Shown one piece after another: positions 49,122 to 52,740 of a stretch of 64,000 nucleotides of DNA; the stretch's first letter is position 1, and each line of letters starts with the position of its first letter. This DNA comes from Candidatus Marinacidobacterales bacterium (GTDB taxonomy: Bacteria; Acidobacteriota; Vicinamibacteria; Marinacidobacterales; DATDRI01), in NCBI GenBank assembly GCA_965226495.1, contig OZ245365.1, forward strand, positions 3,360,001 to 3,424,000. The letters are read 5' to 3'. The position numbers and the translations under genes are program-made. Below the pieces are notes generated by a model. The model was not told the DNA's origin. It saw only the letters and a list, made by a program, of their open reading frames with translations, and searched no databases.

Positions 49122-49868
49122 TTATGACCCCGTCGGCTGCAAAACCGGCAATAACACGAGGCGCGATGCCCGGTTGTGAATGCCGCATTCGGTCTTGGTG
49201 CTGCCACGCCATCTACCGGCGCGTGGATCTTCTCCGAGTCGCACCGGGGTGGTGCAAGGCATGCAGCCAATACTCGGATAGCCTCGCTCGTGGAGCGGGT
49301 TGAAGGGGACGTCGTGCTCCCGTACGTATTCCCGCACGTCGCGGGTCGTCCACTCGACCAGCGGGTTGATCTTGACGAGCCCGAACTTCTCATCGAACCC
49401 GACTAGTGGTGCGCTGGCCCGTTCTGGAGTCTGGTCCCGCCGCAGAGCGCTGATCCAAGCCTCCGCTCCTTCGAGCGCGGCCCGCAGCGGCAGGACTTTC
49501 CTCAACTCGCAGCAGCGGTCCGGCTCTCGTTCCCACAAACCCTCACCGAAGCGACTCGCCTGCTCAGAAAGGGAAAGCTCCGGTCGTGCGGCGCGAACGC
49601 GAAGCCCGTAGCGTTCTTCGAGCTTGCTCCAAAGGGAATAGGTCTCTTCGAAAAACAAACCGGTGTCGAGAGTGAAAATGTCGACTGGCAACTGATTCCT
49701 GCCAATGATGTCGATGAGCACACACCCTTCGACCCCGAAGGCGGTTGCCATCACGAGCCGGGGCGCGAAACGCTCCGACGCCACGCGGAGAATGTCGGTG
49801 GTCGCACGGACCTTGAGAAGACGGTCCATGTCACGAATCTGCTGTTCTCGCTCTAGCTGCTGCATCAT
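49122..49868 (-). CDS. cysH: APS/PAPS reductase (4Fe-4S APS-reductase type)
   Basis: LDTG, RCCELRK, GYPSIGCMPCT, RAGRW, ECGIH. Confidence 0.93.
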   Translation of the reverse strand: MMQQLEREQQIRDMDRLLKVRATTDILRVASERFAPRLVMATAFGVEGCVLIDIIGRNQLPVDIFTLDTGLFFEETYSLWSKLEERYGLRVRAARPELSLSEQASRFGEGLWEREPDRCCELRKVLPLRAALEGAEAWISALRRDQTPERASAPLVGFDEKFGLVKINPLVEWTTRDVREYVREHDVPFNPLHERGYPSIGCMPCTTPVRLGEDPRAGRWRGSTKTECGIHNRASRLVLLPVLQPTGS

Positions 49869-49902
49869 TTCCTCAACCCCAGTGCCCTAGAGGTCCCGGC
49901 CC

Positions 49903-49940
49903 AAAAAACAAAAGGCCCAGGTCCTTTGGACCTGGGCCTT
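49903..49940 (-). terminator. Intrinsic terminator (attenuator) in the cys operon leader
   Basis: Perfect 13-bp stem AAGGCCCAGGTCC-aaa-GGACCTGGGCCTT followed by TTGTTTTTT, about 35 nt before the cysH ATG. Confidence 0.85.
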
Positions 49941-49966
49941 GTGCCGCTTGGCTACGGTTAGCTTGT

Positions 49967-50128
49967 CTACATTAAGCGAGGCCGCTGAAAATCCGAATCC
50001 GAAACAGAAACCGAAATAATCAATCGGCCGACAAACATACTGGGTGCTCCTCCAAGTGACACACGGCCCGGTCCCCCGGGCCAACTACACTTGCAGGACC
50101 TCCGAATCAGCATGTGGCTAAATCTCAT
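49967..50128 (-). CDS. Putative leader peptide of the cys operon (MRFSHMLIRRSCKC...RPRLM)
   Basis: Starts just after the predicted promoter, contains SCKC and four Met, and stops inside the antiterminator. Confidence 0.45.
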   Translation of the reverse strand: MRFSHMLIRRSCKCSWPGGPGRVSLGGAPSMFVGRLIISVSVSDSDFQRPRLM

Positions 50129-50138
50129 CTCTTGAACC

Positions 50139-50167
50139 ATTCTGCCCCGGCCGCTGGCCCGTGTCAA
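50139..50167 (-). promoter_or_regulatory. Sigma70-type promoter of the cys leader
   Basis: TTGACA-17 nt-CAGAAT on the minus strand. Confidence 0.6.
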
Positions 50168-50330
50168 ACGAAAATATGACTTTTTTGGTCTTAATCTAAC
50201 ATCTTTATAATCAGTTGTTTACTAGGTCACATCCTGTATACAGTCGTCATTCCGCCATGGCGATTCCGGAGCCCGTCAGACGCCGTGATTCTCGTGCAGG
50301 ATGGGTTATCATCGGTTATGGAATTCTATA

Positions 50331-50564
50331 ATGGATAAGAAAGAGCGCACTCGACTCGTAGAGCGGTTTGCCTCTGGACTCAAGTATCCTTACCTCTTCC
50401 TGCTCATCGCGGTCGTCTTCGCCCTAGACCTCATCGTGCCCGACGCGATCCCCTTCATCGACGAAATTCTCCTGGGGCTGGTGGCCGTTCTATTGGGAAC
50501 ATGGAAAGAGCGCAAGGGGGTGGAGTCGAAACCCCCGATGAAGAATGTTACTCCCGACCGGTAG
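50331..50564 (+). CDS. Small membrane protein (DUF6116-like)
   Basis: L.YP.LF...PD.IPFIDEILLGL...LL..WK pattern. Confidence 0.7.
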   Translation: MDKKERTRLVERFASGLKYPYLFLLIAVVFALDLIVPDAIPFIDEILLGLVAVLLGTWKERKGVESKPPMKNVTPDR

Positions 50565-50781
50565 GGCTACTTCCTCTTCGCTTCACCAAAAGCATTCGAG
50601 TTCTTTCCGATCCACTTCTCAATCGCCTCCACGAGTCCGCTCCCCTTTGACTTTTCGGGTACCGGGGGACTATTTTCCCTCCCGATGGCCGGCCCTGTCC
50701 TCGACTCCTATTTCCCAGTGGTTCGGTGCGACAACCTCTCTTAGATGGAGCTTTGTCACGGTGACTCGAAAAGGCTCGTCG

Positions 50782-52740
50782 GTGTCCCGGAGCCCCACCG
50801 CGCTCAGCCGATCTCTGTCGAAATACCCGCTACTCACGCTGGCCACCCTCGGCTTCGGAGGGGCGGGTGTTCTACTCTGGCATTTCTCACAGCTGTCTTC
50901 CGAACTGAAAGAGGCAGCCGCGATAGAAAGCGCCGCCCGGTACTCCGAAGTGCTCGCAGAGTTTCGGACGCTCTATACGTCGGAGGTCGTGTCTCGGCTA
51001 CGGCCTCACGGCATCGAAGTCACTCACGACTACCAGTCGAAAGAAGGTGCCATACCACTGCCCGCCACGCTGAGTATGCTCCTTGGCGAGCGAATCGGGA
51101 GAAAAGGCTCCTCCGTTCAAGTACATCTATATAGCGACTACCCTTTTCCCTGGCGGGAAGACGGAGGTCCGAGAAACGATTTCGAACGGGCCGCCCTCGG
51201 CCAGTTGAGGCGAACTCCGAATGAGCCCTTCTTTCAATTCGCCGAGATCCAGGGTCAGCCCGCACTGCATTACGCAACGGCAGATCTCATGAGACCCCAG
51301 TGCGTCGGTTGTCACAACTCCCACCCCGACAGCCCCAAAACGGACTGGGGTGTGGGAGACGTGCGCGGCGTCCTGGAGGTTATCTTACCGATGCACAACG
51401 TGGAGGCGGTGGCCCGGACTGGGCTCAGAGGCACGTTGCTCCTGACGTTGACCCTGATTCTGACCGGTCTTGGACTACTGGCCGTGGTGATCACCGGACT
51501 CCGGCGCTCGTGGGAGACGGAGGAAAGACTACAAGCACAACTACGCCATTCCCACAAGATGGAAACCATCGGGACGTTGGCGGGCGGCATCGCCCACGAC
51601 TTCAATAACGTCCTGACGCCCATCCTCGGATACACGAACATGGCCCTCGAGGACACCCCTCCCAAAAGCCGCACCCATTCCGACCTCCAGCACATCCTCG
51701 CCGCCGGCAAACGCGCGAAAGAGCTCGTGAATCAGATTCTGACTTTCAGTCGACGGAGTGAGCCGGAGCGAAAACCCGTCCAGATTGCATTCATCGTCAC
51801 CGAGGCGCTGAAACTGCTGCGTTCTTCCCTGCCGTCCACGATCGAGTTCCGCCAAGAGATCGACCAGGATTGCGGTACGGTGCTCGCCGATGCGACCCAG
51901 ATTCATCAGGTCATCATGAATCTGTGCACGAATGCGTTCCACGCGATGAGAGAAAGCGGAGGGATGCTCGAAGTGAACCTCGGTGTCGTGGAGGTAGACG
52001 ACGAGCTCGCGCGACCACATCCCAAACTCGCTCTCGGGCCCTACGTGAGGCTGACGTTCAGCGACTCCGGTCATGGAATGGATCCCGAGACCCGAGACCG
52101 CATCTTCGAACCGTTCTTTACGACAAAGGGCGTCGGCAAAGGGACCGGTCTCGGCCTCTCCGTTGTCCATGGAATCGTAGTGAGCCACGGCGGCGAAATC
52201 ACGGTCTACAGCGAGCCCGGCCTGGGAACTACTTTCCACGTCTACCTGCCCCGCTCAGAGGCCCCGGCAGACGGGCGCCAACCGGCCCGCTCCGACGCCG
52301 AGCCCGCCGTCACTGGAAGTGAGCGAGTGTTGGTCGTAGATGACGACGAAGAGGTCGCCCAAGTGGCAGAGCAAATGCTGAAACGACTCGGTTACCAGGT
52401 GACGGTGCGCACGAACAGCGCCGAAGCCCGGGATATATTCCTCGCCCATCCCGAGCGATTCGATATCGTCATCACCGATCAGACCATGCCCCAGCTGACG
52501 GGCGTCGAATTGGCCAAGGAGCTTCTTGGCGCCCGGCCCGACTTACCCATTATCCTTATTAGTGGCTTCAGCGAGCTCATCACCAGGGCGAAGATCAAGA
52601 AAATCGGGATTCGGCATTACCTTATGAAACCCCTGGTCGGGAGCGAGCTAGGGGCGGCGATCAGACAAGTCCTCGATAAGAATGATAAAAATGTTGAGAG
52701 TGACGAAAATGACAAGAACGAGAAACGAGAGGAGGGATGA
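50782..52740 (+). CDS. Hybrid sensor histidine kinase with heme-c (Tll0287/DUF3365-like) sensor and receiver domain
   Basis: IPLPAT, YSDYPFP.R, CVGCH, GDVRG; GIAHDFNN, GKGTGLGL; REC VDDD..TDQTMP. Start approximate. Confidence 0.9.
   Translation: MSRSPTALSRSLSKYPLLTLATLGFGGAGVLLWHFSQLSSELKEAAAIESAARYSEVLAEFRTLYTSEVVSRLRPHGIEVTHDYQSKEGAIPLPATLSMLLGERIGRKGSSVQVHLYSDYPFPWREDGGPRNDFERAALGQLRRTPNEPFFQFAEIQGQPALHYATADLMRPQCVGCHNSHPDSPKTDWGVGDVRGVLEVILPMHNVEAVARTGLRGTLLLTLTLILTGLGLLAVVITGLRRSWETEERLQAQLRHSHKMETIGTLAGGIAHDFNNVLTPILGYTNMALEDTPPKSRTHSDLQHILAAGKRAKELVNQILTFSRRSEPERKPVQIAFIVTEALKLLRSSLPSTIEFRQEIDQDCGTVLADATQIHQVIMNLCTNAFHAMRESGGMLEVNLGVVEVDDELARPHPKLALGPYVRLTFSDSGHGMDPETRDRIFEPFFTTKGVGKGTGLGLSVVHGIVVSHGGEITVYSEPGLGTTFHVYLPRSEAPADGRQPARSDAEPAVTGSERVLVVDDDEEVAQVAEQMLKRLGYQVTVRTNSAEARDIFLAHPERFDIVITDQTMPQLTGVELAKELLGARPDLPIILISGFSELITRAKIKKIGIRHYLMKPLVGSELGAAIRQVLDKNDKNVESDENDKNEKREEG

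Follow-up and report, generated by a model that had tools for sequence, protein, structure and literature searches.

A putative cysteine-sensing leader-peptide attenuator upstream of the cysH-sulfite reductase operon in Vicinamibacteria (Acidobacteriota)

The window analysed here is a 64,000-nt stretch (contig OZ245365.1, positions 3,360,001 to 3,424,000) from Candidatus Marinacidobacterales bacterium, whose genome is a 6.3-Mb single contig belonging to the class Vicinamibacteria. This genome is designated G000, with other G- and L-numbers denoting other genomes and loci. The minus strand of the window carries an operon whose products supply sulfide for cysteine. It begins with cysH, followed by genes for a siroheme synthase N-terminal domain protein and then a uroporphyrinogen-III C-methyltransferase, and also includes a 795-aa NirA-family sulfite/nitrite reductase hemoprotein (scoring under the NCBIfam equivalog cut-offs). 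The operon reaches down to 44741, where it ends in an open reading frame (ORF) without a Pfam or NCBIfam match. Between a promoter-like sequence and cysH, on the same strand, lies a leader containing a short ORF with two Cys codons and an intrinsic terminator, which is probably a near-leaderless, ribosome-mediated transcription attenuator of the leader-peptide kind, reduced to two codons and responding to charged tRNA-Cys. The elements of this leader and their conservation were observed in this analysis, as were the alternative pairings, with their calculated energies, and the presence of leader ORFs rich in Cys at orthologous loci.

The promoter-like sequence, TTGACA-17-CAGAAT (50167-50139), matches 10 of the 12 consensus positions and is the sole sigma-70-like site in 49500-50600 (mean of 0.5 in shuffles); the sequence of its spacer varies freely among relatives. 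The leader ORF encodes the peptide MRFSHMLIRRSCKCSW (also given as MRFSHMLIRRSCKCSWPGGPGRVSLGG), which contains the motif SCKC and four Met. Its stop codon is located 15 nt before the predicted antiterminator 3' strand (segment 3) and 26 nt before the stem of the terminator, a hairpin of the form AAGGCCCAGGTCC-AAA-GGACCTGGGCCTT (49940-49912) with 13 perfect pairs, nine of them G-C, followed by TTGTTTTTT to 49903. An earlier note on this DNA had described a promoter, an ORF of 53 codons containing SCKC and four Met, a U-tract terminator with a perfect 13-bp stem ahead of the cysH-siroheme-sulfite reductase operon, and a stop codon 4 nt past the 5' arm of its proposed antiterminator; all are present, with the stop codon beginning 4 nt after 49974. 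The leader ATG is invariant and lies 9-10 nt past the -10 hexamer in all 14 family members for which promoter sequence is included (10 nt in G000). From this spacing, the 5' untranslated region is predicted to be only ~1-4 nt long.

Table 1. Features of the leader and the operon ends (positions in the window)
Feature	Position	Strand	Details
-35 hexamer TTGACA	50162..50167	minus	invariant in 14/14 family members with promoter sequence included
-10 hexamer CAGAAT (CAAAAT in some relatives)	50139..50144	minus	17-nt spacer
Leader ORF, 53 codons + TAG	49967..50128	minus	ATG at 50128; TAG 49969-49967
P1 5' strand ACAUGCUG	50108..50115	minus	pairs with 50042-50035
Segment 1: P2 5' strand + 5' arm of invariant GC hairpin	50076..50098	minus	helices 2 and 3, 85.6% and 100% of cells paired
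Putative regulatory codons UGC-AAG-UGU (Cys12-Lys13-Cys14)	50087..50095	minus	UGC 50095-50093; UGU 50089-50087
Segment 2: hairpin 3' arm + P2 3' strand	50048..50071	minus	50069-50052 is the predicted antiterminator 5' strand
P1 3' strand CAGUAUGU	50035..50042	minus	
P3, GGCC 50029-50026 with GGCC 49983-49980	49980..50029	minus	encloses variable spacer inside the ORF
Segment 3: predicted antiterminator 3' strand CCAAGCGGCACAAGGCCC	49934..49951	minus	overlaps first 7 nt of terminator 5' arm
Intrinsic terminator, 13-bp stem + AAA loop + U-tract	49903..49940	minus	helix 6, 89.7% of cells paired
cysH, phosphoadenylyl-sulfate reductase, first operon gene	49122..49868	minus	NF002537, 260 bits (cut-off 154)
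Last operon ORF, 212 aa	44741-45379	minus	overlaps end of sulfite reductase gene

Conservation of the leader and its Cys codons

A BLAST search of 41 related genomes with the 302-nt leader recovered the whole leader in G001, G002, G008, G022 and G006, at 70-81% identity, and found it in pieces in G007 and G003; G018 and G034 matched solely over 35-62 nt around the terminator. The leader is conserved, as a single copy per genome, in seven related Vicinamibacteria genomes and nine metagenome contigs. A covariance model of the leader minus its terminator (R1), searched over 151 genomes of the class, found seven (including G000), once per genome and all in the same clade, with no distant homologues. 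A pattern scan of genome contigs gave seven records, all of them relatives already found by BLAST, and the corresponding metagenome scan gave ten loci, nine of which are family members near the G006, G003 or G007 types. The tenth metagenome locus, L031, matched the hairpin only and was rejected as a family member. The unpublished genome G007 contributes one alignment row; every claim has support besides it, as the metagenome contigs L032 and L036 represent the same type.

Within the order, cysH (E up to 1e-30) was detected in 10 of the 46 genomes, and the leader is present in all eight whose cysH is at least 72% identical, always directly upstream of cysH and on the same strand. Judged by comparative sequence analysis, the leader is a real, conserved cis-regulatory element. 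The other 36 genomes of the order, including all 19 of the small-genome family f3, lack a cysH match at this threshold, and assimilatory sulfate reduction seems to be patchy in the order.

The leader ORF is open in all eight genomes, with lengths of 53, 48, 48, 45, 45, 44, 41 and 41 codons, and also in those metagenome variants that were inspected by eye. The sequence TGC-NNN-TGT, encoding Cys-x-Cys, is invariant in 15/15 family sequences, with AAG, GCG or GCA as the middle codon. Apart from Cys the peptide is poorly conserved, with a fairly conserved N-terminal stretch of 21 residues that includes CxC and PG(G/T)PG. The earlier note had proposed the sensing of both cysteine and methionine. 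The cysteine part of this proposal is supported by the invariant Cys-x-Cys; the methionine part is not, since the Met codons vary among the relatives (Val replaces Met at codon 6 in G022 and G007 and at codon 31 in G008 and G022, and only five of eight genomes have the last Met). A second Cys-containing frame, CVTWRSTQYVCRP, which had been raised as a possible leader, can be set aside because it contains in-frame stops, has no start near the promoter, and its first Cys is not conserved (Pro in G006). Cysteine is rare in G000: the long frames comprise 785,344 codons, of which 0.56% specify Cys (32% of these being TGT), and the genome contains a single tRNA-Cys(GCA) gene. This gene (4916456-4916531 of the genome, outside the window) is located ~1.7 kb from cysS (4918277-4919662), on the same strand.

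Large indels are found in a variable spacer inside the ORF (49984-50025, minus strand), which in G000 contains the hexamer repeats TTTCGG/TTTCTG/ATTCGG, translated as SVSVSDSD. The spacer is shorter in relatives, by 15 or 24 nt in the G000-like group and by 25 or 34 nt in the other group, which additionally differs by 2 nt outside the spacer. It has the look of a filler, prone to slippage, that separates segments 2 and 3, and its hexamer repeats could alone favour indels in multiples of three.

A frame that is open in all members, with its fairly conserved N-terminal residues, could also be explained by a functional small protein (CxC..PGGPG), with the terminator merely ending its own transcript. 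However, the PGGPG motif is encoded by an invariant RNA hairpin, and the C-terminal half shifts in frame and length between lineages, the 3' part of the ORF being read in other frames in G007 (-1, +1) and in L029 (+5, with a stop 5 nt upstream). The leader ORF has no Pfam match and is only ever found directly upstream of cysH on the same strand, and a role as a functional small protein is considered highly improbable.

Alternative RNA structures and the predicted antiterminator

Structures were tested on an alignment (A4) of 15 distinct family sequences. The leader folds with an energy of -110.1 kcal/mol, corresponding to z = -6.58 relative to 200 shuffles. The terminator-state model combines the terminator with P1, P2, an invariant 7-bp GC hairpin, P3, which encloses the variable spacer, and P4, a small hairpin. 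In this model 91.9% of 720 cells are paired, compared with 28-47% in controls with partners shifted by 1-3 columns, and five pairs have changed on both sides. P1 is 95.8% paired and contains one U-A to A-U swap, present in five sequences. Both Cys codons are located inside the P2 5' strand, within segment 1, and the invariant all-GC hairpin starts 5 nt past the second of them.

In the alternative state, GGGCCGUGUGUCACUUGG (50069-50052, within segment 2) is complementary at 16 of 18 positions in G000 to CCAAGCGGCACAAGGCCC (49951-49934, segment 3), and would form an antiterminator that competes for the 5' arm of the terminator. Over the 15 sequences, 87.6% of the cells of these 18 pairs are paired, compared with 23-49% in slid controls. 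Columns 71-201 and 72-200 have changed on both sides, and columns 78-194 hold A.C in 13 sequences and G.U, with both sides changed, in the other two. The antiterminator duplex has an energy of -27.2 kcal/mol in G000 and -21.3 to -30.1 kcal/mol over the 15 sequences, with -18.9 to -25.8 kcal/mol for the terminator hairpin and -24 to -35 kcal/mol for the adjacent segments 1:2. In 15/15 sequences, the stretch 50069-50052 ranks first among the upstream partners of segment 3, and shuffled partners equalled its energy in 0/300 trials for 14 sequences and in 1/300 for the remaining one. The unmasked folds contain the terminator in 15/15 sequences and no antiterminator pairs. When the 5' end was masked, as if blocked by a ribosome with a Cys codon in its A site, the minimum-energy folds lost the terminator and gained 15-16 antiterminator pairs in 10/15 sequences (first Cys codon) or 9/15 sequences (second Cys codon).

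The earlier note had proposed a different antiterminator, in which GGCCTCGCTT (49983-49974) pairs with AAGCG..AAGGCC (49949-49935) and is blocked only by a ribosome on the stop codon. This pairing does exist. It is kept in 80% of cells (10 pairs, 15 sequences), its 5' segment comes second among the upstream partners of segment 3 in G000 (the partner window scoring -13.7 kcal/mol), and a ribosome at the stop would indeed cover GGCCUCGCUU. It is not the best antiterminator, with an energy of -11.8 versus -27.2 kcal/mol. Over the family its duplex ranges from -2.4 to -12.9 kcal/mol, against -21 to -30 kcal/mol for the 50069-50052 helix and -19 to -26 kcal/mol for the terminator; two of its pairs are unpaired in 10/15 sequences, and it is absent from all masked folds. 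Furthermore, it leaves unexplained the Cys codons 100 nt upstream, which lie inside another helix, whereas the 50069-50052 helix links Cys-codon stalling directly to antitermination. As the working switch, the pairing with 49983-49974 is therefore improbable.

A fold so strongly structured could also belong to a riboswitch, or to a protein- or tRNA-binding leader, in which the P1-P2-hairpin domain would bind a sulfur-related ligand, stabilising segments 1:2 and favouring the terminator, with the ORF and its Cys codons being incidental. A terminator/antiterminator switch would suit such a leader as well as it does an attenuator, and the conservation pattern also speaks for it: the 7-bp GC hairpin does not vary at any codon position, conservation extends to several unpaired stretches, and the non-Cys amino acids are poorly conserved. 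Other features point away from it. A comparison with Rfam 15, which the earlier note had named as a way of excluding riboswitches, gave no riboswitch, T-box or other family at gathering score anywhere in the window, and chance-level matches only (E 1.1-6.2) for 49700-50400 at E up to 10. The leader occurs in single copy in a narrow clade, its start codon is invariant and held at a fixed distance from the -10 hexamer, and a synonymous GCG to GCA change at the middle codon of Cys-x-Cys disrupts one P2 pair (columns 45-79, unpaired in 2/15 sequences). The cysH loci outside the family also bear on this alternative.

Cys-rich leaders at other cysH loci of the class

Matches to cysH at E up to 1e-40 were found in 136 of 401 genomes of the class, and the upstream regions of 23 loci outside the family were inspected. 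In nine of the 23, a short ORF with a Cys cluster (up to CCCCCC) is located between a promoter-like site and cysH. Two of these are from the same order as G000, namely L046 (G151; peptide VIRRPASCCCCCCRWCRSL) and L045 (G034; MSLLACTNCACSGPAR, alignable with the G000 leader), and one is from another family, L053 (G041; VSPRTPMAMRCMCPRPEG). The others are from a third family, namely L048 (..MCCCCQTRVAP..), L052 (MMCCCCQTRVAP), L056 (MSVERAMCCCCTS), L063 (MAQRLMCCCCTV), L064 (MRGACCCRARVAPG) and L066 (CACCCCCMARVAPGP). Excerpts from peptides of these loci also read VIRRPASCCCCCCRWC, MRGACCCRARV.., ..CACCCCCMARV.., MSLLACTNCACSG and MAMRCMCPRPEG.

By eye, a GC hairpin followed by a T-rich run is present between the Cys ORF and cysH in eight of the nine loci, the exception being L053, where no terminator was recognised in this way; a strict terminator scan flagged only L045 and L063. 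Where the promoter scan found a site (L045, L046, L053, L056 and L063), the start codon lies 6-10 nt past the -10 hexamer, the promoters of L048, L052, L064 and L066 having been read by eye only. Among the other 14 loci, L061 has just 110 nt of upstream sequence, and L049, L050, L051 and L054 have apparent coding sequence up to cysH; the remaining nine, inspected at frame level only, have cysH frames open for 392-746 aa and upstream frames that look coding.

Runs of three or more adjacent Cys codons are present in seven of the 23 loci (L046, L048, L052, L056, L063, L064 and L066; runs of 3-6), compared with ~0.27 runs expected in 10.4 kb at the G000 rate of 328 runs on both strands of 6.34 Mb (12.7 Mb of strand), a rough control in that the rate was taken from a different genome and a single family accounts for six of the seven loci. 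Genome-wide, Cys-codon runs in G000 were too noisy to show further leaders and served only as this background rate, and no Cys leader followed by a terminator was found upstream of cysK (3 loci) or cysS in G000. Locus L053 contains, ~340-130 nt upstream of cysH, a split Cys-Met-Cys sensor with a GTGAGT start 10 nt past a CATAAT -10 hexamer, and a GAGGCCC..GGGCCUC hairpin directly after it, so the two-codon form also occurs outside the G000 clade.

The leaders that cannot be aligned with that of G000 share Cys codons and not the sequence of an RNA domain, which is predicted by a coding sensor and not by a riboswitch, and a ligand-binding leader is correspondingly unlikely. We regard the comparison of cysH loci as the decisive evidence for the predicted attenuator. 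The earlier suggestion of ribosome-mediated attenuation with a Cys ORF thus finds support in the invariant Cys-x-Cys, the conserved terminator and the polycysteine leaders at orthologous cysH loci. The comparison of cysH upstream regions that the same note had envisaged gave both a conserved leader and antiterminator in relatives and a recurrence of Cys ORFs beyond them.

Proposed mechanism and relation to known systems

In the proposed mechanism, transcription would begin a few bases before the AUG of the near-leaderless ORF, placing codons 12 and 14 in segment 1. With ample charged tRNA-Cys, the translating ribosome would pass the Cys codons and segment 2 and head for the stop codon, allowing segments 1:2 to re-pair behind it and segments 3:4 to form the terminator, so that the cysH operon would be off. 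The same pairing would arise in the absence of translation, making off the default state. With scarce charged tRNA-Cys, the ribosome would stall on codon 12 or 14 and cover 50098 to ~50076 (segment 1), and the free segment 2 would capture the emerging segment 3 before the terminator 3' arm is made. With the terminator blocked, RNA polymerase would read into cysH, the siroheme genes and the sulfite reductase gene. The transcription start, ORF translation, stalling and regulatory outcome in this scheme are predictions. A ribosome resting at the stop codon would reach within a few nt of segment 3 and also cover 49983-49974, and the stop-codon blocking proposed in the earlier note is compatible with this mechanism as a secondary effect.

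Several observations weigh against this attenuator. The ORF contains just two, non-adjacent Cys codons, compared with ~1.6 per 53 codons expected in a random frame of the same composition, so that the Cys codon count alone is not enriched. The leader AUG has no Shine-Dalgarno sequence and lies 9-10 nt past the -10 hexamer, where a strictly leaderless start expects 6-7 nt. The non-Cys codons show no third-position bias by eye. In the G006/G003/G007 group, none of the three frames is interrupted in the 3' half of the ORF and every frame is closed by a stop-rich block, and the openness of the ORF is therefore weak, non-independent evidence there. The model does not account for much of the conserved unpaired sequence, such as the ATGAG start and the AUGUAGACAAG block. 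In the masked folds of G000, G008, G022, G007 and G003, the terminator is retained at equilibrium; in G000 the forced antiterminator and terminator states are nearly isoenergetic (-65.5 versus -66.5 kcal/mol, 1 kcal/mol apart), so that the order of synthesis would decide between them. Masking of eight distant leaders removed the terminator in only one (L052), and L063 behaved in the opposite direction, with no local terminator in the unmasked fold and one in the masked fold; this masking is given no weight as support.

The conserved block around the leader stop (49957-49973, minus strand) consists of AUGUAGACAAG / AUAUAAGUAG followed by UAA, and is unpaired in the model. It contains stops in all three frames in the G003/G007 group, and RNAalifold pairs its AGACAA with the terminator U-tract.

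Four metatranscriptome runs from one study contain contigs of 211, 178, 152 and 155 nt within 49899-50122, with 0 differences. No contig identical to cysH was found in these RNA libraries, and the contigs show presence only, not ends or levels; coming from a single study, they are a hint at most.

Upstream of the leader, two genes on the plus strand diverge from its promoter region, encoding a DUF6116 protein (87 aa, 50301-50564) and a 731-aa hybrid histidine kinase (50545-52740) with a Tll0287-like sensor and a receiver domain.

A more tentative suggestion is that the GC hairpin, and the helix that buries the Cys codons, might have a role beyond that of a passive segment 1, as an inbuilt brake on the ribosome at the very time of Cys decoding. 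If this were true, two non-adjacent Cys codons could be as sharp a sensor as the CCCC-CCCCCC runs of sister lineages, and the Vicinamibacteria would present an evolutionary series that starts with polycysteine and leads to a minimal Cys sensor assisted by structure, with intrinsic termination as the common output, and the first transcriptional cysteine attenuator family.

Cysteine is among the few amino acids without a classical terminator-based leader-peptide attenuator in the searchable literature. A full-text search, with little coverage of subscription journals, found no leader-peptide attenuator for cysteine that uses an intrinsic terminator, nor any cysteine leader-peptide attenuator in Acidobacteria; attenuators are almost unannotated in Acidobacteriota, as indicated by the available portions of a published account (PMC2965389). 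From the loci described here, sulfate reduction appears to be regulated throughout an acidobacterial class via the ribosome reading the Cys-tRNA supply, with G000 showing a probable limit of sensor reduction, namely two codons within a helix. They also provide a concrete model, open to testing, of how sulfur assimilation may be regulated in Acidobacteriota of sea and soil, which are abundant but uncultured, and the leader may offer a compact natural part for cysteine-responsive gene control.

Short Cys-containing ORFs upstream of cysteine-related genes have been reported in other phyla. In mycobacteria, the consulted sections of Canestrari et al. (2020, bioRxiv 10.1101/834739) describe leaderless polycysteine short ORFs with a translational mechanism, based on pairing between the Cys tract and the Shine-Dalgarno region of the gene that follows; they state that upstream-ORF attenuation for cysteine was undescribed before, and that two consecutive Cys codons suffice. 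The mycobacterial case is likewise cited as translational in an excerpt from Eckartt et al. (2026, PMC13236596). The present leader resembles these ORFs in the predicted location of a Cys ORF at the mRNA 5' end of a cysteine-related operon and in the proposed stalling at Cys codons. It differs in its conserved intrinsic terminator and antiterminator, the mycobacterial system being one without a terminator as far as those sections go, and in the Cys-x-Cys of the G000 family in place of consecutive codons, although the loci of relatives do have runs. No complement of the Cys-codon stretch was seen by eye between the terminator and cysH, including near the cysH Shine-Dalgarno sequence. Cys leader peptides have also been predicted in Actinobacteria, reported without terminators in the accessible part of the source (Seliverstov et al. 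2005, PMC1262725), and a leaderless leader peptide with two Cys has been predicted before cysS in Deinococcus deserti, according to an extract of its description (de Groot et al. 2014, PMC4007540). As far as these partial accounts extend, both cases share with the present one a short upstream Cys ORF before cysteine-related genes, and that of D. deserti also has two Cys codons, with a start at the transcript 5' end; the present case is distinguished by its cysH-sulfite reductase operon and by its occurrence in Acidobacteriota.

A close parallel in mechanism is provided by the classical leader-peptide attenuators of the E. coli trpL type (consulted portions of bioRxiv 10.1101/834739 and PMC4007540). 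Classical attenuators apply the same logic to Trp, His, Leu and other amino acids. Common to these and the present leader are a promoter-proximal short ORF with codons for the pathway end product, the segments 1:2, 2:3 and 3:4, and a U-tract terminator that immediately precedes the structural genes. Like trpL, the present leader has two regulatory codons, here separated by one codon. Unlike the classical attenuators, the present leader would sense cysteine and is found in the phylum Acidobacteriota; it has no Shine-Dalgarno sequence, with the ORF starting ~1-4 nt from the predicted transcription start, and its segments 2 and 3 are ~100 nt apart, the 41-53-codon ORF running through segment 2 and the spacer. 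It is thus likely to represent a long-ORF, long-range, two-codon variant of a class-wide family that follows trp-type logic and reads cysteine.

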